Positions 55 to 31,633 of a stretch of DNA of 43,929 nt are shown in pieces; the first letter of the stretch is position 1, and the number at the start of each line of letters is the position of its first letter. The translations under genes and the position numbers were made by a program. The stretch is from a virus (lineage: Duplodnaviria; Heunggongvirae; Uroviricota; Caudoviricetes), in the IMG/VR virus record IMGVR_UViG_2654588006_000005, positions 1-43,929 of that record; one strand, 5' to 3'. The notes below the pieces were generated by a model, which was not told the DNA's origin, did not search any database, and was given only the letters and a program-made list of their open reading frames with translations.

Positions 55-639
55 TTACTCCCTGACAGGGTTCGTAGGCCACTCAATATCAGGTGCAGTT
101 GATGTATCAACACGGTTCAGCAACACCCGATACTTTTTCCAGGCTTCCAGCAACAAGGTTTCTTCCTCCGTTGCGATTTCCAGATCTACAGCATCCTGAA
201 GTGGCGCAATATGCTCATTCGCTGCCTGCATCAGGCTGTTTTTTGTTTCTTCCGCCTCCCGGATCCGGAATAGTTTTTCTGCTTCTGCATCTTTCACCCA
301 GGCTGTGCCGTTCCACTTCTGAAACTCCCCTTCCGGGGATAACCAAGTGGCATTTTCCGGTAACGGACCGAGTTCAGAAATAAATAACGCGTCGCCGGAA
401 GCCACGTCATAAACCGTTTTACCCCGATGATCTTCAACGAGATGCCACGATGCCTCATCACTGTTGAAAACAGCCACGAAGCCTGCCGGAATATCTGGCG
501 GTGCAATATCGGTACTGTTTGCTGGCAGACCTGTATGAGGCGGAATATATGCGTCACCTTCACCAATAAATTCATTAGTTCCGGCCAGCAGATTATAAAT
601 TTTTATGGTCCGTGGTTGTTCACTCATTCTGAATGCCAT
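55..639 (-). CDS. tfa: tail fiber assembly protein Tfa (194 aa)
   Basis: Translation [24 protein letters not shown]... is near-identical to lambda Tfa as I recall it; same 194-aa length; start overlaps the stf stop. Confidence 0.9.
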
Positions 640-3600
640 TATGCAAGCCTCACAATATAGTTAAATGCGATGTTTTTGACGGTGTTTTCCGCGTTACCAG
701 CAGCGTTAACGGTGATGGTATGTCCATGTGAACCAATCGCAACGGAGTGCGTATGAGCACCAATACCGACAGTATGTGCGTGTGCACCTGCGCTTGCAGC
801 AGTACCCGATACAGAGTGCGTATGAGCGCCTGCAGAAGAAGTGTTAACACTGTATTTAGAATAATCAGGTGATCCACTTCCCGGAGCACCACTGGAACCA
901 CCTGAAACAAATGTCATCGAATGGGTATGTGCACCGGCTGAAGCAGCCGTACCGCTAACACTATGGGTATGCGCACCAGTGTTATTCGTGGATTTAGTGC
1001 CGTAATCAAACGACGATGTGGTTTTCGTCCCCAAATCCGTACTGGATGCGCTGGCGCTGTGGGTGTGCGATTTAATGCCGTCCTGTTCCTGAGACAATAC
1101 GGCACGACCACTGGCGGGCTTGCCCTTAATCGTCCAGCCACGCATATCAGGGATCACGCCTGACGGATAAGCAACTGCAAGTTTCGGGTAAGCAGATTTG
1201 TCAAAAGTCTGCCCCTGCATCAGGGCATAACCAGACGGAACGGTATCTGATGGCCACGGGATTGGTGCGCCGACTGGGTAGCTTTCTGGTGGAAGATTTT
1301 TCGAGGTATAAACTTCTGCCCAGTCTTCCTCAAAACCATAGCCATCTCTTGAGGAACGGTAGAACAGACCTCCATTTCTGTAATGTGCCTTCATCTGCAA
1401 GGTCCGGCAACTTCCGACTCCGGTATAGAAGTTAACCAGAATATAGCTGTCGCCAGAGCGGGTGACATTGTAAGCGCCTGATTCGGCATTCCATGGAACG
1501 CCCCCATCCGCATCGGCATACGTATCCGTTGCCCTTCTGGCAAAAGCAGCCACATGCGCGGCGGTTAAAGTAATATCTCTGGAACCATCAAACTCAACAC
1601 CAGAAACCCGTCTTGGCGTTTGCAGCTTTGTTGCTGTCAATGCGTTACCGTTCAGACTTGCAGACAGCTTGGTTCCAATAACCAGTTCGCCGGTTGCGTT
1701 ATCAATAGCAAACGGTCTTAATGTATTCCATCCACCATAAACATCACCTTGATTGGTAAGCAGCAGGTAAGTTTTAGCGCCATCATTACGCCATAATGCC
1801 CCATACTCCCCACCTATCATTCGAATCTGATTACCACCACGCGCTACAATTTCGTCTGTGGCAAAAAGTTTTTTGCACGACAAGTTATCGTTAACGATTA
1901 ACGAATGAGACTCATAAAAACCACGCCCACTCTTAAAATCAAGGATAACGTCCGCCGCGATACATTCAGTCGCCGGATTTGTTGCCCCAAACTTATAGGT
2001 CGTATCATTAACAACGAGATCAGCACCAGGTGCGGATATTGACAGGCCATCTTCGATAAACGCAAAAACAGGGAAAGCAGCGCCATCAACATAGAACACA
2101 GAGCGCAAATCATCGCCCTTATTACTCATCATTATTGAGTGGATGGCTCGTTCATTGTTTTGATATTGCCAGAACATGCCATAAGCATAACGCCCCCTGT
2201 CAGTCCAGCCACCAGGCATAACAAATCCGTTAAACTCGCAGTTATTCATCGGATCGCCTGCGGTTCGCGTTGCCGTGGTGATAATGACCCTTGATGCCAG
2301 TTCGCTTACTGAGCCAGCAGAACGCATAACAACAACAGGGTAATATTTTCCAGATGTTGCACCTGCAGGAGCGTTAACCCGCACATAACGCATACCACGC
2401 TTATCAGCAAAGTCTGTTTTACTGACCGCGTTAATGTTGTTCAGGAAGCGTCCCTTATCGGGTATATCAGCGCCGTTCTGGTCTTTCTGCAGACGTTTCT
2501 CTGCATTGTCATAGGCTGATTTTACTGCCTTTGGCGTTGCCGCCAGCGTTTCAGACGTACTGTTGGTCGCACTGCTGAGCTGTACTATCCCCTTTTTCGT
2601 CGTACTTGCATCCTCAAGCGCCACGGCGGATGCAATATCCTCTGCCCGTTTTGCCGCTGTCTCGGCGCGCGTTGCCGCGGATTCCGCCGTACTTTTGCTC
2701 TGTGCTGCCGCCGTCGCACTGCCAGCTGCCTCTGTCGCCTTCGTGGATGCTGTCGTGGCGCTGCCCTTCGCTGCGGACGCTTGTCTGGTCGCCTCATCTT
2801 TTGAAGCAGACGCCGATGATGCCGATGACGCCGCCGAACTGGCGGACGATGCGGCAGCCGTTTTTGAGGATTCTGCGCTGGTTTCCGACGCTTTCGCGTT
2901 CGTCTCGGATGTCTTCGCTGCGGAAGCAGACCTCGCTGCTGCGCTGGCCTGTACAGCGGCTTCGCCAGCCTTCGTTGTGGCTGTTGAAGCGGACGATGCA
3001 GCACTTTCTGCCGATTTTCCGGCGGCGGTGGCACTGGCTGAGGCCTGCCCGGCATTTGTTGACGCGGCGCTGGCAGATGAGGCAGCCGCTGTTTTTGAGT
3101 CTGCTGCTGCGGAGGCACTCTGTGCTGCTGCCGTCTCAGAAGACTTAGCGTTCGTCTCGGACGTTTTTGCCGCCTTCGCGGAATTTCCTGCCGCTGTTGC
3201 CGAGGAGGCTGCACTACTGGCGCTCGAGGCTGCGCTCGTTTCTGATGATTTTGCCGCCTCTTTTGAGGCCGCCGCATCCCGGGCTGAGGTGGCAGCTTCT
3301 GACGCCTTCGTGGTCGCGGCGGATGCAGAAGTGGCTGCTGATTGTTGTGACGCTGCCGCATTCGTTTCTGACGTTTTCGCCGCAGCGGCACTGGTGGCCG
3401 CCGCGCTTTTTGAGGACTCTGCAGCAGCAGCACTTTTCGATGCTTCACTGGCCTTTGTTGATGCCGTTCCTGCGCTGGAAGATGCTGACTGAGCAGATGA
3501 TGCAGCCTGTCCGGCTGACGTGCTGGCGGCACGAGCTGAGCCTGCAGCATCGGTTGTATGAGTTGCCGCCTCACTGGCAGATGTGCTGGCATCACTGGCT

Positions 3601-4719: not shown

Positions 4720-7700
4720 TCAGCTGATACTGATACCTGCTGTGGATTTTTTCATCACCACAACCAGCAGATCGCTGATACTGGTTGTTGGTGTCCAGTT
4801 ATTCGCTCCTGATGAAGATACGGTGAATGTCAGTGTCAGCGTCCCCTGTCCGGCAGGCATATCTATAACTGAGGAAAATACGCCCTGAGCATCCGTCGTG
4901 GACTGATTAAAAATCTCCTGACCATTGCGGGTCACTCTTAACCGGCAGGTTGAATACCAGTATGACTGTTGGTTATTACTGTTGAAATTCTCATGCTTAC
5001 CACCGCGGAATAACACTGGCGGTATCATGACCTGCCGGTCAAATTTCTGATCATCACTGATTCTTACCGTGATGGTGCCACTGGCATAACTGTTCGTGCG
5101 GGGGAAAGACTTGCTGACCGTTTTGACAATATCGCCTTCAATCTGATTGGCTGACAGTTTCCCCTTAATCTGACAGTTTTCATTAATCGTGACATTGTTG
5201 AGCGTCCCTGAATTTGCATTCACATTACCGCTGATATCCGCATTTTTAGCGGTCAGCTTTCCGTCTGGTGTCAGGGAAAATGCCGGCGGATTTCCACCGC
5301 TGGTAATGGTGGGAGCCGTCAGGCGTTTCAGGAACACGTCGTTCATGAATATCTGATCGCCCTGACCAACAAACATCGGTTTTGTGTTGCCATTCGCAGG
5401 ATTAACCATCGCAATCCTGTCCGCCGCCAGCAGCACCTGACTCTGCATGCCGTCAGGGGTGTTCTCAATACCGGCACCAATACCCGCGATATAAAGGCGT
5501 CCGTCCTGCATCTGCTGCAGCTTCACAGCCCACATGCTGTTCAGGTTATTATTTGTATCAACCTGAACCTTCTGTATCTGCTGAATTGCAGCACTCTGGT
5601 CTTCCAGTTTCTTATTGACGGTCTGCGTGATTTCATTGCTGACATCCGTAATGGACGTCCTGATTTCAGCCAGGTCAGGCGCAAGCTGACCGTTATCAAT
5701 CTGCGTCCACAGATCCTGAGCCAGATGGGTTTTCCCTATCTCGCCTTTGAAAAAATCCAGATAACCGGATGCATCATCACTCGGCTGACCAACAGCCTCC
5801 ACGAATGCCGATTTGCCAACGGTGTTCACACTGCGAACGTAAAAATAATAATTATGGCCCGGCCTGATATTGATACTGGCGGCTATCCAGTACAGCGCCG
5901 TGCCAAGATAGCGTGCTGTGGTTTCAACCTGCCTGATATCCGCAATCCGCTTTTCCGAGAACCAGAACTCAAACTGTACCGTCGGATCATAAACCGCAAG
6001 ATGCGGCGTGGCGGTTATCTGAAAATAGCCCGGCGTCAGCTCAATCCGCGACGGCGCTGCCGGTGCGGCAATCCGGAACGATACCGACGCCGGATCGCCC
6101 TGCTGCCCCCACGCATTTACTGCCCGGACTGTCAGCCTGTAGTTCCCCAGCGCCAGTTGTGTGAAGCGGTAAGTGGTTTCCGTCGTCCGGGCCGTGCTGA
6201 CCAGCCACTCACTGCCGTCATCCGCTGTTACGGTCAGACGGAGCAGGAAGCTCACGCCCTTCACCACCTTCGGCGTGTCCCAGCGCGCCAGCACCTGATA
6301 TTCCCCGCTGTCTGCGGTGACTTCGGCGGTCAGGTGCTGCACCGCTGGCGGCGTGACACCATTCACCGTGCCGCTCTGGTCGCCGTCAAAGTGCGCCCCG
6401 TTATCCACGATGGCTTCTTTTTCCGGTACATGCTGCACGGCGGTGATGGCATACGTGCCGTCGTCGTTCTCACGGATACTCACGCAGCGGAACAGGCGCT
6501 GGCGCAGCGTCGGCAGCTTCAGCCCCCACACGCTGTATTCAGCAACGCCGTCAGGAACACGGCTCACTTTCACCTTCACGCCGTCGGTGACGGACTGAAC
6601 CTCCACGCTGACCGGATTGCCACTTCCGTCAACCAGGCTTATCAGCGTGGTACCGGAGGATGGCAGCGTGATTTCACGGTCGAGCGTCAGCGTCCGGGTC
6701 TGGCTGTTTACCGCCAGCACGCGCCCGCCGGTGCGGATACCGGCATAGTCATCATCACAGATTTCAATGACATCGCCCGGCACATGGCGAAGCCCTTCTG
6801 CGCCCACGCTGAAGTCCACGGTCTGCGTTTCCAGCAGTTCTGTTTTAATCAGCCACAGCCCGGCGCGATGTGCCTGCCCCCGGCTGGTACAGCCAAAGGC
6901 ATCCATCTTCGTGACATTACGACCGTAACGGGCAATGGCCTGCGTGTCCTCCACAAGCTCTGTCGCCGTCTCCCAGCCGTTATCCGGGTCAATCCAGTTC
7001 ACCTCAACGGCATTATGGCGGTCCTTCAGGGCGCTGAAGCTGTAGCGGAACGGCGCGCCATCATCCGGCATCACCACATTACTGCGGTTATAGGTCCACA
7101 CCTTATCTGATGGTCGGTCCTGCACGAACGTCAGCGTCTGCCCGTTCCATACCGGCATACAGCGCATCGCCGAGCAGAAATCACTGAGCACATCCCACGC
7201 CTTGCGCTGTGTGGTCAGGTACGCATTACAGGTGATGCGCGGCTCCGTGCCGCCAAAGCCGTCCGGCACTGACTGGTCGCAGTACTGGCCGATGACATAC
7301 AGCGCCCATTTATCCACATCCGCCGCACCAAGACGTTTCCCCATGCCGTAGCGCGGATGGGTCAGCATATCCCACAGACACCAGGCCATGTTGTTGCTGT
7401 ATGCCGGTTTAAACGTTCCGTCCCAGATACCGCTGTATTGCCGCGTCTGCGGGTTATAGTTCGACGGCACCTGCAGAATGCGCCCGCGCAGATGATAATT
7501 ACGGCTCACCTGCTGGCTGCCGAACTGCTCCGAATCCACCTGCACGCCGACCAGTGCCGTGTTCGGGTAGCACTGTTTCACATCGATGATTTCGGTGTAT
7601 GACGACCAGAGCGTTTTGTTCTGCAGCTGGTCTGTGGTGCTGTCCGGCGTCATCCTGCGCATCCGTATATTGAACGGGCGCGGCGGCAGGTTACCCACCA

Positions 7701-24810: not shown

Positions 24811-25290
24811 TTTTATTCCTACGGGTCTTATTCTGACAATATATCCTGTGTTCCAGACTGCCACATCACCACATCCTGTGCCATTATCTGACTCACATTA
24901 CATACATCGCATCGGGATACAGTAGTAGCACTTTCTGTAATACAGCTTCCGGTTTCTTCCACCATCGCACCGGGATAAATCCGCGAATCATTAACGCGGT
25001 AAAAACCCGGTGTGCATCGTTTTTAATTATTCCCGCACACTCACGCAGAAGGAATTCCCCGTCGGGCTACGGTCATGGTTAATGCGGGAATACGGCGACG
25101 ATACAGCGCAGCTAAAAGGGTAATGGACGGATAGACCGGTTTATTTCATTCTACAGGATTCTGAGTGTCCCCAACTCCCTCCAATCGTCTGAGCTCACCT
25201 GTGTAGTTTTAATTTTCATCAATCCATTTAACTATCGTTTAATTGTTGTCACATAGGATTCTGCCGTTTTTAACAATGCAGGATAATAAG

Positions 25291-25584
25291 ATGAAAAAAA
25301 TGTTGTTTTCTGCCGCTCTGGCAATGCTTATTACAGGATGTGCTCAACAGACGTTTACTGTTGGAAACAAACCGACAGCAGTAACACCAAAGGAAACCAT
25401 CACCCATCATTTCTTCGTTTCGGGAATTGGGCAGAAGAAAACTGTCGATGCAGCAAAAATTTGTGGTGGTGCAGAAAATGTGGTTAAAACAGAAACCCAG
25501 CAAACATTCGTAAATGGATTGCTCGGTTTCATCACTTTTGGCATTTATACTCCGCTGGAAGCGCGGGTGTATTGCTCAAAATAA
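25291..25584 (+). CDS. bor: Bor/Iss-family lipoprotein (97 aa)
   Basis: MKKMLFSAALAMLITGCAQQTFTV...ITHHFFVSGIGQKKTVDAAKICGGAENVVKTETQQTFVNG... near-identical to lambda Bor as recalled; same position between Rz and cos on the opposite strand. Confidence 0.85.
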   Translation: MKKMLFSAALAMLITGCAQQTFTVGNKPTAVTPKETITHHFFVSGIGQKKTVDAAKICGGAENVVKTETQQTFVNGLLGFITFGIYTPLEARVYCSK

Positions 25585-27299: not shown

Positions 27300-27515
27300 T
27301 TACTCTCCTCTCGCAGCCTTTCTTCTGTCTTCTCTGATTTTGAAGTACAGATTCGTCAGATAAGTCAGAAAGCCCAGAACCAGACTTCCCAGTACACCAA
27401 TCGCAGCCCACTGAGACGGACTAACCTGATCAAGCCATTGTAAAAACCAGTAGCCAGCACTGCCTGCGGAGGTGCCGTAGGCAATGCCTGTTGATATTTT
27501 TTCCATCTGATACAT
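27300..27515 (-). CDS. S: class II pinholin, phage-21 S-type, dual start (71-aa antiholin / 68-aa holin)
   Basis: [71 protein letters not shown] with Met1-x-x-Met4 dual-start motif and two TMDs; pairs with a SAR endolysin. Start is derived from the track frame (plus or minus 1 bp). Confidence 0.8.
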
Positions 27516-27624
27516 ATCCCGCCCCAACAGACCTGTGCTACCGGAAAGAAAAAAGGCCATCAGCAAAACTCTGATGGCCTGAATCACCTTTACCAGTCAT
27601 GTATGAAAAAATACGCACAACCAA

Positions 27625-27756
27625 TTGACAATAATTATCATTTTCATTAAAAATACCGCGTAACATTCTTATTTCATGAAGAACCATACCCGCCAGCAAC
27701 CTGAGTAGCAAAAGCTGTTCATCCCCCATATTTTTGCTGGCGGGTTCTTTTTTCTA
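27625..27756 (+). ncRNA. candidate small RNA: near-consensus sigma70 promoter plus hairpin/U-tract terminator
   Basis: TTGACA (27625-27630), 17-bp spacer, TAAAAA(T); about 30 nt later CCCGCCAGCAA ... TTGCTGGCGGG inverted repeat followed by TTCTTTTTTCT; antisense to the late-operon leader upstream of S. Confidence 0.25.
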
Positions 27757-27977
27757 CTGCCCTCCTCCCCAGGAAAAGCATTTCATTCTTTTCTCATTAA
27801 TCGTTACTGGAGAGAAGGCGGGAAAAAGCCAGCTCTTTGGCCCTAAATAACAGCATGGCTTCAGTCCATACAGAATCTGATTTTCCAGCTCACATAATAA
27901 CCAGATGATGCAGTTGCAAAATCTGGCAACATCGGATTATTATGCGCCTGTGAAAATTTCTTCACGTTTTATTCCTT

Positions 27978-28013
27978 GCCGCCCGTGCCTCCCAGCGCGG
28001 GCTTTTTTATCCA
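27978..28013 (+). terminator. candidate intrinsic terminator (plus strand)
   Basis: GCCCGUGC / GCGCGGGC stem (one G-U pair) with CUCCCA loop followed by TTTTTTAT; preceded by a possible TTGCAA-17-TTATTA promoter. Confidence 0.4.
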
Positions 28014-28327
28014 AAAAATACCCCTCCGGAGAGGGGTATCATACAAGGGGATGACCATGATGCATGGTGCCGGGTGCCTCCCGGTGAGTCCGGCATCAGC
28101 ATACGAACCCGCGATTATCCCAGAACTGACTGCTGATTCGCCCCGCCGCTTAGGGGGATTCACCATGCGTTTTTTTATTTACAAACTCTTCGCCAGACAA
28201 ACAACCATTAACTGGCTGAATTGTGAGGTATTTCAATTTTTAGAAAACTGACCAACCTCCGCTTATACGCCGGGCATGGAGCGGATACAAAAAAGCCCCG
28301 CAAAAGCAGATCAGAAGGATTCGTTGT

Positions 28328-28366
28328 AAAAAAAAAGCTGTCAGATTATCGCGCTAATCTGACAGC
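28328..28366 (-). terminator. intrinsic terminator downstream of the methyltransferase gene
   Basis: Perfect 12-bp stem GCTGTCAGATTA / TAATCTGACAGC with 6-nt loop, followed on the minus strand by a run of 9 U. Confidence 0.55.
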
Positions 28367-28608
28367 TACAGCAGGTATCCAAAAACATGGGTGGAAACAA
28401 TAAGTGAGTTAAGAAGACACGGTGTCGGATTTTTACCGATGAGCCGTTGGCGTGGTCAACCGTGACTCGCTTGTATCAACGATGAATTAATGAAGCCAAT
28501 CCTTTGCAGGCTATGTACAACCCACCACATCAGCCCTGCTGCATTGCAGGATACACTGTATCTGTAATCATTATACGGCACAGACATCCCACCAATAATT
28601 GAATTAAT

Positions 28609-29670
28609 TCACAAAATTGTATTTGCTGATAACATACTGATTTCCTGGATGGTCTGATTAAACCGCTCTGTCTCAAGCTCAACACCTAACGCCCGACGCC
28701 CCAGCGCCATTGCTGCTTTTATTGTGGAACCGGATCCCATAAAGAAATCAGCAACCAGATCGCCGGGTCGACTACTGGCATTGATTATTTGCCTGAGCAT
28801 ATCCGCCGGTTTCTCACACGGATGTTTACCCGGGTAGAACTGAACGGGTTTATGCATCCAGACATCGGTATAAGGCACGGAGACTGATACGGAGAAATAG
28901 CGCCGGAGAGATTTAAACTCATCCAGCAATTCAGAATATTTGCGATTCAGTGAATCATAAGATGCCACCAACTGGTGGTGTGGTTGTTCCAGTTGTTGTT
29001 CCTGAAACTTCTCTGCCGCTATACGGGAAAACAGTGCCTGTAACTTCCGGTAGTCAGCCTCATTCGGCAACTGCCACTGACTGGCACCAAACCAGTGGGA
29101 AACCATATTTTTCTTACCTGTGGCTTCGGCAATTTGTTTTGCCGTTATACCCAGTTCGGCACGAGCATCCCTGAAATACGATATCAGCGGTGCCATTATG
29201 TGCTGTTTGAGTTCCCTTTCTTTTGCCACATAGCCGTCACTTTTGCCGCGATATGGCCCCCGGTAATGTTCAGCAAACAGAACGCGCTCTGTGGCAGGAA
29301 AATATGCGCGCAGACTTTCTTTATTACACCCATTCCAACGTCCGGACGGCTTCGCCCAGATGATATGGTTAAGCACGTTGAAACGTTCACGCATCATGAT
29401 CTCAATATCAGATGCCAGGCGATGCCCACAGAACAGGTAAAGGCTTCCGGCAGGTTTCAACACCCGCCAGAACTGGGCCAGACAGTGGTCCAGCCACTTA
29501 AGGTAATCTTCGTCCCCTTTCCACTGATTGTCCCAACCGTTGGGTTTCACCTTGAAGTAAGGCGGATCGGTAACAATCAGGTCAATGGAATCATCAGGCA
29601 GGGACTGAATAAAATGCAGGCAATCAGCGTTGATTAAATCAATACTGTTTATTTTTACAGTGTTTTTCAT
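28609..29670 (-). CDS. orphan DNA amino-methyltransferase (N6-adenine or N4-cytosine, beta-class; 353 aa)
   Basis: DPPY motif near the N-terminus (LIVTDPPYF) and FMGSGST (FxGxG SAM-binding) near the C-terminus; no adjacent restriction endonuclease gene. Confidence 0.85.
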   Translation of the reverse strand: MKNTVKINSIDLINADCLHFIQSLPDDSIDLIVTDPPYFKVKPNGWDNQWKGDEDYLKWLDHCLAQFWRVLKPAGSLYLFCGHRLASDIEIMMRERFNVLNHIIWAKPSGRWNGCNKESLRAYFPATERVLFAEHYRGPYRGKSDGYVAKERELKQHIMAPLISYFRDARAELGITAKQIAEATGKKNMVSHWFGASQWQLPNEADYRKLQALFSRIAAEKFQEQQLEQPHHQLVASYDSLNRKYSELLDEFKSLRRYFSVSVSVPYTDVWMHKPVQFYPGKHPCEKPADMLRQIINASSRPGDLVADFFMGSGSTIKAAMALGRRALGVELETERFNQTIQEISMLSANTIL

Positions 29671-30137: not shown

Positions 30138-30158
30138 AAAAAAACCGCGAGAACGCGG
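30138..30158 (-). terminator. intrinsic terminator downstream of the AT-rich cargo gene
   Basis: CCGCG-AGAA-CGCGG hairpin followed on the minus strand by a U-tract (plus-strand A7), about 38 nt past the ORF stop. Confidence 0.5.
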
Positions 30159-30195
30159 TAAGTATTGTTAAAAAAAAACAGTAATTTCACTCAAC

Positions 30196-30726
30196 TTATT
30201 TAATACATTCTTTTGCTTGCGCATAATAAATTTTATGAGTATTAGCAAGCTTAACGAAGTTATACTTAACTGCCCCTAACAGGGTTCCAACTCTTGTATG
30301 CCCTTCCATTAAATGAAGCCCTGTTGTATTACTTTTCAGCAAAGCTCGATCTATAAAAAATGGAGGTTCACACCATGTGCCAAAATTACACCAATGCGCT
30401 TTTATTTCATCATCCATAAATACATCGCCTTTACGGGTTGTGAAATCTTCAACGACCTCATGCAAAAAATCAGGGTAAGTAGCATTATCCCCGATAGTTA
30501 AAAAATTTTTAGTGGGAAGTTCAATCAATTTCCATTCGATTTGGTCAATATTAAGATCCCCATAAAGCTCCTGAAATCTGTCATAACCTGCCAATCCATA
30601 ATAAATCTCCTGAATTACAGGAGTGGGGGCGGCGATAGAATATTGCTCACGAAGTATTCTTTCAGCCTCAGGAGCTTTAAATATGGGTCTTTCTGAGAAA
30701 ATAGGCAAAAGATCTCGGTATAACAT
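30196..30726 (-). CDS. hypothetical protein (176 aa) encoded by an AT-rich cargo gene immediately downstream of pR'/tR'
   Basis: Markedly lower GC than flanks; GGGGA RBS; bounded by tR'-like and downstream terminators; no signal peptide; C-terminal EGHTR motif only faintly ParB/Srx-like. Confidence 0.6.
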   Translation of the reverse strand: MLYRDLLPIFSERPIFKAPEAERILREQYSIAAPTPVIQEIYYGLAGYDRFQELYGDLNIDQIEWKLIELPTKNFLTIGDNATYPDFLHEVVEDFTTRKGDVFMDDEIKAHWCNFGTWCEPPFFIDRALLKSNTTGLHLMEGHTRVGTLLGAVKYNFVKLANTHKIYYAQAKECIK

Positions 30727-30740
30727 CCATATCCCCGTGT

Positions 30741-30775
30741 AAGAAAAAATAATTTAACCCGCTCGGCGGCGGGTT
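30741..30775 (-). terminator. tR'-like terminator ending a short 6S-like late leader RNA
   Basis: AACCCGC / GCGGGTT stem followed by AAATTATTTTTTCTT on the minus strand, about 50 nt downstream of the predicted pR' start site. Confidence 0.5.
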
Positions 30776-30880: not shown

Positions 30881-31633
30881 TTATCTCGTCACCTTTCTCA
30901 ATTGTGCTTCAGCGAATGCTTCTTCCTGCCAGCACTTTGTTACCAGTTTATCAATGACGTCTGCATATCCTTTGTACCACTGATAATCAGTCAGGTCTGG
31001 TACCAGCTTCTGGACATGACGTCGTGCCAGTGTGGTCGGTAAACGACTAAACCGGTTTCCATTGCAACGCCCACAAATCTTATAAACAGGCGCGCCATGA
31101 AGCCGGGTTCTTTTTTCATCCAGGACAATGCCTTTACCCTTACACCCTCTGCAAGCCGTGCTGACTTCTCCCTTACCATGGCAATGCTGACATAATTCCT
31201 TCACCCACTCTTCCTTGATAACAGATTCCCCGCTTCTGGAGTGTTTCACCACTTCGCGCAATACACTATGAAATCCAGTACCAGCACAATGCTCACAGCG
31301 AGCCTTACTTGCCGCAGACCTGGAATAATCAGCAAAGGCAAAACTCACAAGGTAAGGGATGATCTGTAACCGGGTTTCTTCACTCAATTTGTTCAATGTC
31401 GGGTTATCCATTGCCATCGCGTAATTGAGCAGACCTTCAATCGCAAACTGAGGATCCTGAACACCAACTTTTGCCAGGAATAAGGCAAACCCAAGCGGTG
31501 CTTTCGACTGCACCATCCCCTGCGCAGCCATCACATCCGTAATCGTTAAACCACCTGAGCCTGTCGCCGGTGCGTCATCGCTCAATTTTGGAGATTTTGG
31601 GGAGTAATATTTTGGTAAGGCTTCAAGGTTCAT
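30881..31633 (-). CDS. Q: late gene antiterminator Q (250 aa)
   Basis: N-terminus MNLEALPKYYSPKSPKLSDDAPATGSGGLTITDVMAAQGMVQS parallels lambda Q; Cys-rich zinc-finger-like region CEHCAGTG...CQHCHGKG...CRGCKGKG. Confidence 0.85.
   Translation of the reverse strand: MNLEALPKYYSPKSPKLSDDAPATGSGGLTITDVMAAQGMVQSKAPLGFALFLAKVGVQDPQFAIEGLLNYAMAMDNPTLNKLSEETRLQIIPYLVSFAFADYSRSAASKARCEHCAGTGFHSVLREVVKHSRSGESVIKEEWVKELCQHCHGKGEVSTACRGCKGKGIVLDEKRTRLHGAPVYKICGRCNGNRFSRLPTTLARRHVQKLVPDLTDYQWYKGYADVIDKLVTKCWQEEAFAEAQLRKVTR

Follow-up and report, generated by a model that had tools for sequence, protein, structure and literature searches.

A probable cluster of small RNA genes interleaved with terminators ahead of the lysis genes in a lambdoid prophage from extraintestinal Escherichia coli

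The gap of about 1 kb that precedes the lysis genes in the prophage described here is probably a cluster of three small RNA (sRNA) genes interleaved with terminators, and two of the predicted sRNAs are relatives of RNAs that have been studied experimentally, namely STnc100 and PapR. Such a layout is already known from prophages of EHEC, EPEC and UPEC, and the finding is real and mostly ordinary.

Layout of the gap

The window (i.e. the whole stretch of DNA that was analysed, 43,929 nt) is a lambdoid prophage of extraintestinal E. coli, and the 1.4 kb around the gap (27300-28700) are 100% identical to IHE3034, APEC O78 and PMV-1. The late genes are found on the minus strand in the order Q, methyltransferase, gap and S21-type holin; Pfam matches on this strand identify the Q antiterminator (PF03589), an N6/N4 methyltransferase, a P21-type holin and DUF1327. 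The iss gene is located on the plus strand and is transcribed towards the gap. No tRNA was found in the whole window; ileZ-argN-argO occupy the same site in related prophages. The PasB probe sequence was not found in the window either, and the IS009 element, which Zhu et al. linked to PasB, is present despite this. The features of the gap, and one element away from it, are the following:

27554..27580, minus strand: pre-holin intrinsic terminator (10-bp stem, 7-nt loop, T6, z = -2.95)
27625..27653, plus strand: promoter-like element of candidate sRNA 1 (TTGACA at 27625-27630, 17-nt spacer, TAAAAA(T) at 27648-27653)
27660..27756, plus strand: candidate sRNA 1, antisense to the late transcript (about 95 nt predicted, from an inferred start)
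27914..27943, plus strand: promoter-like element of candidate sRNA 2 (TTGCAA at 27914, 18 nt, TATTAT)
27950..28010, plus strand: candidate sRNA 2, homologue of the PapR 3' domain (about 60 nt predicted)
28009..28197, minus (late-sense) strand: STnc100-family sRNA (Rfam RF02076)
28040-28017, minus strand: terminator of STnc100
28297..28310, minus strand: weak second hairpin and T-run behind the methyltransferase terminator (5 pairs, 3 GC; low confidence)
28336..28367, minus strand: intrinsic terminator after the methyltransferase (13-bp perfect stem, T9, fold z = -4.4)
30775-30756: candidate tR', away from the gap terminators

The promoter boxes, hairpins and T-runs that an earlier note on this DNA had reported, including the TTGACA, 17-nt spacer and TAAAAA combination, were all recovered in place by scanning and folding. 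Its minus-strand terminator after the methyltransferase is there with the T9 tract, the stem being of 13 bp and not 12. STnc100 (28197-28009) with its terminator, the third sense terminator (27580-27554) and the convergent pairing of candidate 2 with STnc100 had escaped it.

The explanation that is favoured, with good though incomplete confidence, is that the gap is a ‘moron-site’ sRNA cluster of a lambdoid prophage, made of three independent sRNA genes, each provided with a predicted sigma-70-type promoter and an intrinsic terminator. STnc100 would be encoded on the late-sense strand and the PapR-family RNA opposite to it, with abutting terminators, as a convergent pair; an antisense RNA with the layout of PasA/PasC would be the nearest of the three to the lysis genes. 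Transcription of the three genes in the lysogen would be carried out by host RNA polymerase without Q, and their products would pair in trans, in an Hfq-dependent manner, with host or virulence transcripts, the PapR-like copy keeping a stretch that could pair with papI mRNA. The three sense terminators (one behind the methyltransferase, one behind STnc100 and one ahead of the holin) would keep transcription of the moron and sRNA genes from running into the lysis genes, and Q-modified polymerase would read through all three after induction.

That the gap instead codes for small proteins, from ORFs of 38-91 aa, is highly improbable. Some RefSeq annotations do put one or two ‘hypothetical proteins’ in it, and ORFs of 91, 65 and 63 aa exist; however, none of the gap ORFs has a Pfam match, those of 91 and 65 aa run through the STnc100 structure, relatives at 87% identity carry indels of 1-3 nt that disrupt the 63-aa and 38-aa frames, and the IHE3034 RefSeq record has no annotated gene in the gap. 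The earlier description of the region as one with ‘no convincing ORF’ thus holds. As for RNA families, STnc100 is the only one found by Rfam over the gap at a permissive threshold; matches to SgrS, PrrF, istR and anti-hemB were set aside as sub-cutoff terminator look-alikes.

The convergent pair of STnc100 and a PapR relative

The RF02076 match is full length (model positions 1-206), and its score of 114.5 bits is well above the gathering cutoff of 47 (E = 1.9e-24). The predicted RNA has the orientation of the late genes, is located between the moron and the lysis genes, and ends with an intrinsic terminator; it is also the largest RNA predicted in the gap. The same layout is found in Sakai Sp5, where the sense STnc100 abuts the antisense AsxR just 3′ of stx2B, and the window copy could be aligned with that of Sp5 and with PasD1/PasD2. 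Known relatives are EcOnc27 of Sp5, whose Northern probe falls inside the Sp5 STnc100 copy and which gives bands of 235/247 nt (Tree et al. 2014, PMC4104026), and PasD1/PasD2 (EcOnc13) of EPEC, which are 172-173 nt long. The window STnc100 is linked to a PF03589-type Q, a linkage that Zhu et al. 2026 described for PasD. It differs from known STnc100 in having one arm shorter and a weaker promoter match, with a poor -10 box, and its 114.5 bits compare with 207.7 for the Sp5 copy. A put-like or other cis-acting role for STnc100 was considered, and nothing supporting it was found.

On the opposite strand, candidate sRNA 2 consists of the U-rich linker UUUUAUUCCUUGCC, a terminator at 27981-28002 and a U6 tail. 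The GC-rich hairpin of this terminator (plus strand; fold z = -5.6), which is followed by TTTTTTAT, is the only strong plus-strand terminator that a stricter scan finds in the whole window. Candidate 2 converges on STnc100, their terminators abutting at about 28003-28017, and, as read from the sequence, the two form the known ‘convergent sRNA pair’ arrangement; Tree et al. 2014 (PMC4104026) described such ‘convergent sRNAs’ in eight Sakai prophages, where they occupy the moron site downstream of PR′.

Candidate 2 has PapR-family matches in 977 records, with 80-83% identity over the 71-77 query bases matched (E about 1e-11). The EPEC E2348C_1409/1408 sRNA, Sakai Sp4 EcOnc08/21 and four further prophage copies align with it, each of them antisense to late genes, and the stem changes in one of the copies (L024) are compensatory. 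The primers for PapR cloning and knockout in UTI89 (JMJ836, JMJ645, JMJ755) match the family of candidate 2 at both ends, and also place PapR against an STnc100-type terminator. Among these relatives, PapR of the UPEC strain UTI89 depends on Hfq and is a repressor of papI (Khandige et al. 2015, PMC4546395), EcOnc08/21/42 of EHEC Sakai Sp4 gives a Northern band of ~271 nt (Tree et al. 2014, PMC4104026) and the sRNA of the E2348C_1409/1408 IGR of EPEC PP6 was detected by RIL-seq (Pearl Mizrahi et al. 2021); according to the source papers, detection of the three relied on Northern blot, Hfq-CRAC or RIL-seq. Each of them is antisense to the late operon of its own prophage. The proposal of plus-strand sRNA genes antisense to late transcription, as made in the earlier note, finds support in this homology.

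The 22-nt stretch complementary to papI is kept in candidate 2. RNAduplex on whole sequences returned meaningless full-length duplexes, and an ungapped 22-nt scan, counting G-U pairs as half, was used instead over the papI stretch (nt 74-96 of the ORF); with it, the window copy scores 18.5/22 at papI nt 75-96, equal to the PapR-type copy of MS8345. Candidate 2 shares with PapR, EcOnc08/21/42 and E2348C_1409/1408 the TTGC...TATTAT box, the CUUCACGUUUU...UUAUUCCUUGCC linker, the GCCCG...CGGGC terminator and the U-tail, besides the orientation antisense to the late genes, the convergence on an STnc100-type terminator and the complementarity to papI nt 75-96. The box, which is conserved in 10 members of the family, is homologous to the conserved TTGCGC...TATTAT inside PapR-family genes.

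Unlike PapR, candidate 2 is devoid of the 5′ ~95 nt (CGGGCUGAAGUCCGG...) and, because of this, of the mapped PapR start and of the reported LRP site. Indeed, the homology starts only at about 27910, and the start of the PapR 5′ domain, CGGGCUGAAGUCCGGAAGUU, has no match in the window at <=3 mismatches. A 7-nt deletion in the AU-rich linker also distinguishes it from the family. The predicted length is about 60 nt, whereas PapR measures about 180 nt and EcOnc08/21/42 about 271 nt; since the mapped RNAs of the family (~180-270 nt) start upstream of the box, the 60-nt transcript is a prediction only. The TTGCAA/TATTAT box, which the earlier note took as promoter-like, is present, and the mapped starts of the family lie upstream of it. 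With the 5′ domain missing, the window copy might be silent, or might depend on read-through from candidate 1. In four window-type genomes the short PapR paralogue is the only PapR-family match among the matches listed.

Candidate sRNA 1 and its orphan copies

The promoter-like element of candidate sRNA 1 is read by the scan tool with an 18-nt spacer and AAAAAT, matching 10/12 consensus positions. Downstream of it, ACCCGCCAGCA(A) at 27688-27699 pairs with (T)TGCTGGCGGGT at 27735-27746, followed by TCTTTTTTCT, in a fold whose outer stem of 12 bp encloses an inner hairpin of 8 bp (-31.2 kcal/mol, z = -6.3); in the predicted fold of the RNA, 18 nt at the 5′ end are single-stranded ahead of the compound terminator hairpin (27688-27746) and the U-run. 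Promoter, hairpin and T-run are conserved, while identity in the flanks has dropped to 57-64%. Four variants with an overall identity of 86-91% all have TTGACA and TCATTAAAA unchanged, and the hairpin is the best-conserved segment (92-95%).

The nearest relative is an antisense element of Sakai Sp5 (L002:8078-8212), which shares 24/29 positions of the promoter block (z = 7.3) and for which the supplementary table of Tree et al. lists no sRNA. When an HMM was built from PasA, PasC, EcOnc52 and the Sp5 element, leaving out the window sequence, its top match in the window was candidate 1, over the full length (E = 0.011); in pairwise comparisons with PasA, PasC and EcOnc52, candidate 1 scores no higher than shuffles do (z about 1), the Sp5 element alone being clearly similar. 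Over related holin loci, an HMM of the PasA, PasC, Sp5 and Sp4 elements found one further member only (L009). In the set of 80 related holins, the TTGACA...GCCAGC hairpin...T-run motif is found upstream of only 8, all with the exact candidate 1 block, and at least 16 unrelated arrangements occur upstream of the window-type holin; candidate 1 is, therefore, not a universal feature of holin leaders. A full-text literature search with its sequence strings returned irrelevant papers only, with no description of it.

Of 5426 complete E. coli genomes, 1426 have the candidate 1 block. Most of the copies are orphans, carried by ColV plasmids and located next to papI, and in about 1280 genomes the block has no adjacent holin; the reach of the orphan copies is about a quarter of complete E. 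coli genomes. As the orphan copies have one left junction in common, their spread may be the result of hitch-hiking rather than of selection. It is conceivable, but on balance doubtful, that candidate 1 is an undescribed, expressed Hfq-type sRNA, which was exported from the prophage and kept on ColV plasmids (by iss) as well as, some 2.2 kb away from papI, within the pap pathogenicity island that ST131, Nissle and relatives carry, and which, with the adjoining 5′-truncated PapR paralogue, would form a prophage-derived RNA layer on ExPEC virulence/fimbrial regulators.

The two plus-strand candidates necessarily show full complementarity to any late transcript that crosses the gap, candidate 1 is about 145 nt upstream of the holin start, and the antisense orientation is kept in every relative examined, all of which would suit control in cis, whereby the plus-strand RNAs pair with the late leader leading to RNase III cleavage, or transcription interference damps expression of holin and lysis genes. 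This reading is unlikely, however, in the light of the persistence of candidate 1 in so many genomes without a neighbouring holin to regulate and of the differing morons that PapR-type genes adjoin (stx2B, tRNAs, a tolA-like gene), which leave no conserved cis target. Furthermore, those relatives that have been characterised act in trans, with papI mRNA as the target of PapR, FnrS as that of AsxR and GcvB as that of AgvB (PMC4546395; PMC4104026). Most likely, the gap RNAs would be separately transcribed, trans-acting Hfq-type sRNAs.

Sense-strand terminators and comparison with known systems

Terminator-like sites are enriched in the gap (13 versus 3.6 +/- 1.5 in shuffles), and 3 of the 8 sites that the stricter scan finds in all 44 kb of the window fall inside the 0.86-kb gap. 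The sense strand does carry stacked terminators, as envisaged earlier. Promoter-like sites, instead, are no commoner than in shuffles (4 versus 4.4 +/- 2.6). The latter figure agrees with a reading of the gap as made of terminators only, the hairpins being insulators or bidirectional terminators against read-through (e.g. from iss on the plus strand or from the morons on the minus strand) and the promoters chance A/T-rich matches, with no stable functional plus-strand sRNA; the transcription of iss towards the gap and the lack of the mapped PapR 5′ domain and promoter in the window copy also speak for it. Such a reading is nevertheless improbable: TTGACA and the -10 of candidate 1 have stayed invariant next to the diverged flanks, the TTGC...TATTAT box recurs in 10 family members and aligns with the one upstream of AsxR, for which a short primary transcript has been mapped, and the single-stranded papI-pairing stretch is conserved upstream of a terminator that, if bare, would have no need of it.

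With regard to the sense strand, within the favoured sRNA cluster, the terminator at 28336-28367 closes the methyltransferase moron transcript, and that at 27580-27554, 38 nt upstream of the holin ATG, is the last ‘guard’ before the lysis cassette. The latter is conserved at 85-100% in relatives and orphan copies, and the same hairpin is found ahead of the holin in Sakai Sp5 and in the related locus L009; inspection by eye revealed no convincing minus-strand promoter feeding it. It is standard lambdoid biology that sense-strand terminators between Q and the lysis genes are overridden by Q-modified RNA polymerase. With the sense-strand terminators stacked as they are here, lysis expression from a promoter near Q would need a terminator-resistant (Q-modified) RNA polymerase, and, by analogy, these terminators probably shield the lysis genes until Q acts.

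Three sRNA genes are thus predicted in a gap that RefSeq prophage records leave unannotated or fill only with a ‘hypothetical protein’, and a regulatory module studied mainly in EHEC and EPEC, plus PapR in UPEC, is extended to prophages of neonatal-meningitis and avian ExPEC. Two leads follow, namely the short PapR paralogue with its papI-pairing site kept, and candidate 1 as an uncharacterised sRNA candidate travelling with iss on ColV plasmids and found also beside the pap operon; neither overturns current understanding.

Among the known systems, the Stx2 phage Sp5 has AsxR in the position of candidate 2, i.e. antisense, abutting the STnc100 terminator and downstream of the moron. The two have an aligned -35 context, CAGTTGCNNAG, and the box of candidate 2 aligns with that upstream of AsxR (TTGCGC, 17 nt, TTAAAAT). 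If it started from the TATTAT box, candidate 2 would measure ~60 nt, compared with 51-60 nt for the AsxR/AgvB/EcOnc03 class, of which AsxR was mapped as a primary transcript of 51-60 nt (Tree et al. 2014, PMC4104026), and it shares with this class the order of a variable 5′ part, then the terminator, then the U-tail. It departs from AsxR and AgvB in its body and terminator loop. The Rfam models of these two (RF02703 and RF02702, respectively) have no match at E <= 5 in 27300-28700, the same search detecting AsxR in Sp5 at 88.1 bits, and no FnrS- or GcvB-mimicking sequence was identified in candidate 2.

Candidate 1 resembles PasA/PasC of EPEC (EcOnc51/52 in EHEC) in being antisense to the late genes with the promoter on the holin side (PasA is at L003:5035-4916 on the minus strand, with the holin at 5214 on the plus strand, as compared with 27625-27756 on the plus strand for candidate 1), in the TTGACA(A) -35 and A-rich -10, in a transcript of about 80-95 nt (predicted for candidate 1) and in a terminator stem built on GCCAGC/GCTGGC and followed by a U-run. 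It differs in its compound hairpin with a 36-nt interior and in the body sequence, the similarity at the sequence level being marginal by both HMM and pairwise scores.

Finally, the arrangement as a whole is reminiscent of the lambda PR′-tR′ 6S RNA and of StxS, in that sense-strand terminators are placed between Q and the lysis genes, to be overridden by the Q-modified polymerase; it departs from them in that, in the window, a moron and an sRNA gene precede the terminators, which are 2.5-3.3 kb downstream of Q.

Terminators and reading frames around the gap

The small-RNA finding in the roughly 1-kb gap upstream of the holin (27588-28380) is real, and it is better supported than the earlier note, made from sequence alone, could know. 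The DNA represents a lambdoid prophage that belongs to extraintestinal pathogenic E. coli. Around the gap, 1.4 kb show 100% identity to IHE3034, APEC O78, PMV-1 and some 110 further complete genomes; the RefSeq entry of IHE3034 holds no annotation between holin and methyltransferase. The late order on the minus strand is Q, two small unknown ORFs, methyltransferase, gap, holin, DUF1327, lysozyme and Rz, with these features:

30881-31633, minus, Q antiterminator (PF03589)
30756-30775, minus, candidate tR' sense terminator, roughly 100 nt past the stop codon of Q
30144-30159, both strands, perfectly palindromic hairpin in the space separating the unknown ORFs; its T-runs are on the minus strand
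28609-29670, minus, DNA methyltransferase moron
28040-28017, minus, own terminator of the small RNA STnc100
27580-27554, minus, third sense terminator, 38 nt upstream of the first holin ATG
27300-27515, minus, P21-type class II holin (PF04971)
25243-25584, plus, iss/bor lipoprotein gene (serum-resistance moron)

The holin carries an M1...M4 (MYQM) dual-start motif, like the S21 holin/antiholin pair, and Pfam gives no match for the 176-aa ORF at 30196-30726 (minus), which lies between Q and methyltransferase. Transcription of iss/bor is directed towards the lysis genes and is hence antisense to them.

The promoter-like boxes and hairpins of the earlier note are all present, with small corrections. 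Taken as a class, promoter-like hexamers show no enrichment (4 versus 4.4 +/- 2.6 in shuffles); terminator-like sites do (13 versus 3.6 +/- 1.5 in 3 kb), and a stricter scan of the whole 44-kb window places three of its eight sites inside 0.86 kb of the gap, the hairpin at 27981 being the only strong plus-strand terminator in the window. The sense terminator at 27580-27554, previously missed, is conserved ahead of the holins of Sakai Sp5 and of a related prophage locus (L009). The gap might be read as terminators only, which we consider quite improbable. Predicted folds are much more stable than those of shuffles, with z = -6.3 and -5.6 for the two plus-strand sRNA candidates described below, and -4.4 for the methyltransferase terminator. 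The absence of a convincing ORF was borne out: the gap ORFs have no Pfam match, two frames, of 63 and 38 aa, are disrupted by indels in close relatives, and the ORFs of 91 and 65 aa overlie STnc100, so small proteins are a most improbable content.

The best reading is that the gap holds three predicted sRNA genes of the Hfq type, which would be independently transcribed, trans-acting and active in the lysogen. Until overridden by Q-modified polymerase, the three sense terminators would shield the holin from the moron and sRNA promoters; the override is expected from established lambdoid biology.

STnc100 and the convergent arrangement

The first of the three, overlooked in the earlier note, is a full-length STnc100 (RF02076; Rfam 114.5 bits, cutoff 47) at 28197-28009 on the minus, that is late-sense, strand. 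A second, weak STnc100-like match (28376-28583, minus; 17.6 bits, E = 0.38) sits untranslated between the methyltransferase stop codon and terminator, and may be a degenerate copy or due to chance.

In Sakai Sp5, according to Rfam, STnc100 (sense) abuts AsxR (antisense) immediately 3' of stx2B. Downstream of PR', Tree et al. 2014 reported 'convergent sRNAs' that lie between a moron and the phage ORF following it, in Sp3, Sp4, Sp5, Sp9, Sp10, Sp11, Sp15 and Sp17 (PMC4104026); the EcOnc27 Northern probe of that study maps within the Sp5 STnc100 copy, so EcOnc27, seen at ~235/247 nt, is STnc100. A 2026 preprint by Zhu, Shabalina and Storz relates STnc100 to PasD1/PasD2; according to it, pasA, pasC and pasD1 typically adjoin the holin/lysozyme operon and have a Q of the PF03589 type in their vicinity. 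A full-length IS009 RNA element, which Zhu et al. (2026 preprint) find typical of PasB neighbourhoods, lies at 98-296 (minus; Rfam 213.9 bits, cutoff 117); the PasB probe sequence was not found in the window.

Candidate 2 and the PapR family

Candidate 2, a predicted plus-strand sRNA at about 27950-28010, sits in the place of AsxR, converging on STnc100, and is not matched by the Rfam AsxR and AgvB models. It aligns with the EPEC RIL-seq sRNA E2348C_1409.E2348C_1408.IGR, with Sakai Sp4 EcOnc08/21/42 and with copies in other strains adjoining stx2a, tRNAs or a tolA-like moron. The primers that Khandige et al. 2015 used for cloning, mutants and knockout place UTI89 PapR in the same family, giving its 5' end (CGGGCTGAAGTCCGGAAGTT), its 3' end (CTTCACGTTTTATTGTTTATTCCTTGCCGCCCGCGTCTCCCAGCGCGGGCTTTTTTT) and the downstream terminator (CCCCTCCGGAGAGGGG). 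Every aligned relative is antisense to the late genes, an orientation compatible with cis-antisense control of the late leader, which the earlier note had raised beside action in trans and which we regard as unlikely. The published PapR-papI complementarity was reproduced at papI nt 75-96, and candidate 2 keeps it with the same score (18.5/22, each G-U pair scoring one half). The stem varies in a compensatory manner (CCCGTGC/GCGCGGG in the window, CCCGCGT/GCGCGGG in EPEC, CCCGTAT/ATGCGGG in the related locus L024).

Compared with PapR, candidate 2 lacks the 5' ~95 nt, has a 7-nt deletion within its AU-rich linker, and shows TTGCAA-18-TATTAT as its sole visible promoter. A predicted 60-nt transcript is plausible, since the TTGC...TATTAT box is conserved inside all members of the PapR family and aligns with TTGCGC-17-TTAAAAT upstream of AsxR, an experimentally mapped 51-60-nt primary transcript (Tree et al. 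2014, PMC4104026); the mapped RNAs of PapR and EcOnc08/21/42 measure ~180 nt and ~271 nt, respectively. Among the matches listed, candidate 2 is the only PapR-family member found in the four genomes that have the window-type copy.

Candidate 1, its spread and its relatives

Candidate 1 is a predicted plus-strand sRNA at about 27660-27755. Four variants (86-91% identical overall) differ little or not at all in the TTGACA box, the TCATTAAAA(A) box, the T-run and the two arms of the hairpin; identity is 92-95% in the hairpin and only 57-64% in the downstream flank. Of 5426 complete E. coli genomes, 1426 carry the block, with 641 copies plasmid-borne; at 80% coverage or more it is found in 1421 genomes, and adjoins a holin in only 141. 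The other copies are orphans and fall into two kinds. ColV plasmids (e.g. pS88, L092 3501-3635) show the order iss, Rz remnants, candidate 1, IS, iroB; in the pap islands of Nissle, ST131 and C25 (L093, L094, L095) it is papB|papI, IS3 remnant, Rz remnant, candidate 1, ISL3 remnant, as follows:

~3001-3139 or 4001-4139 of L093, L094 and L095, pap-island candidate 1 orphans, ~2.2 kb from papI

Both kinds share an identical left junction, so the spread could stem from a single ancestral deletion with later hitch-hiking.

The literature search found no published description of a candidate 1 RNA. An HMM built from PasA, PasC, EcOnc52 and an antisense element of Sp5, and so independent of the window sequence, gave candidate 1 as its top match (full length, correct strand, E = 0.011). 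Pairwise similarity to PasA and PasC does not exceed shuffles; the only clear similarity is to the Sp5 element (L002:8078-8212, minus), with 24/29 promoter-block positions (z = 7.3) and a common CCGCCAGC/GCTGGCGG stem. That element, an antisense promoter and terminator located ahead of ECs1210/ECs1211 and the holin, is absent from the EcOnc entries found in the tables of Tree et al., and has a homologue at L009:2279-2400 (minus). In E2348/69 PP2 (L003) a second antisense sRNA-like gene stands in tandem just 3' of PasA (4762-4874, minus), overlapping the end of the gene for a SASA esterase; EcOnc52 of Sakai Sp4 has almost the same sequence, and PasC is similar.

Candidate 1 may belong with PasA/PasC (EcOnc51/52), whose layout it shares: it is antisense to the late genes, has its promoter on the holin side and has a terminator stem based on GCCAGC/GCTGGC. 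The gap, in which a known family (STnc100) is joined by a truncated variant of the characterised sRNA PapR and by one candidate that is undescribed yet widespread, exemplifies an architecture known from descriptions since 2014-2015.
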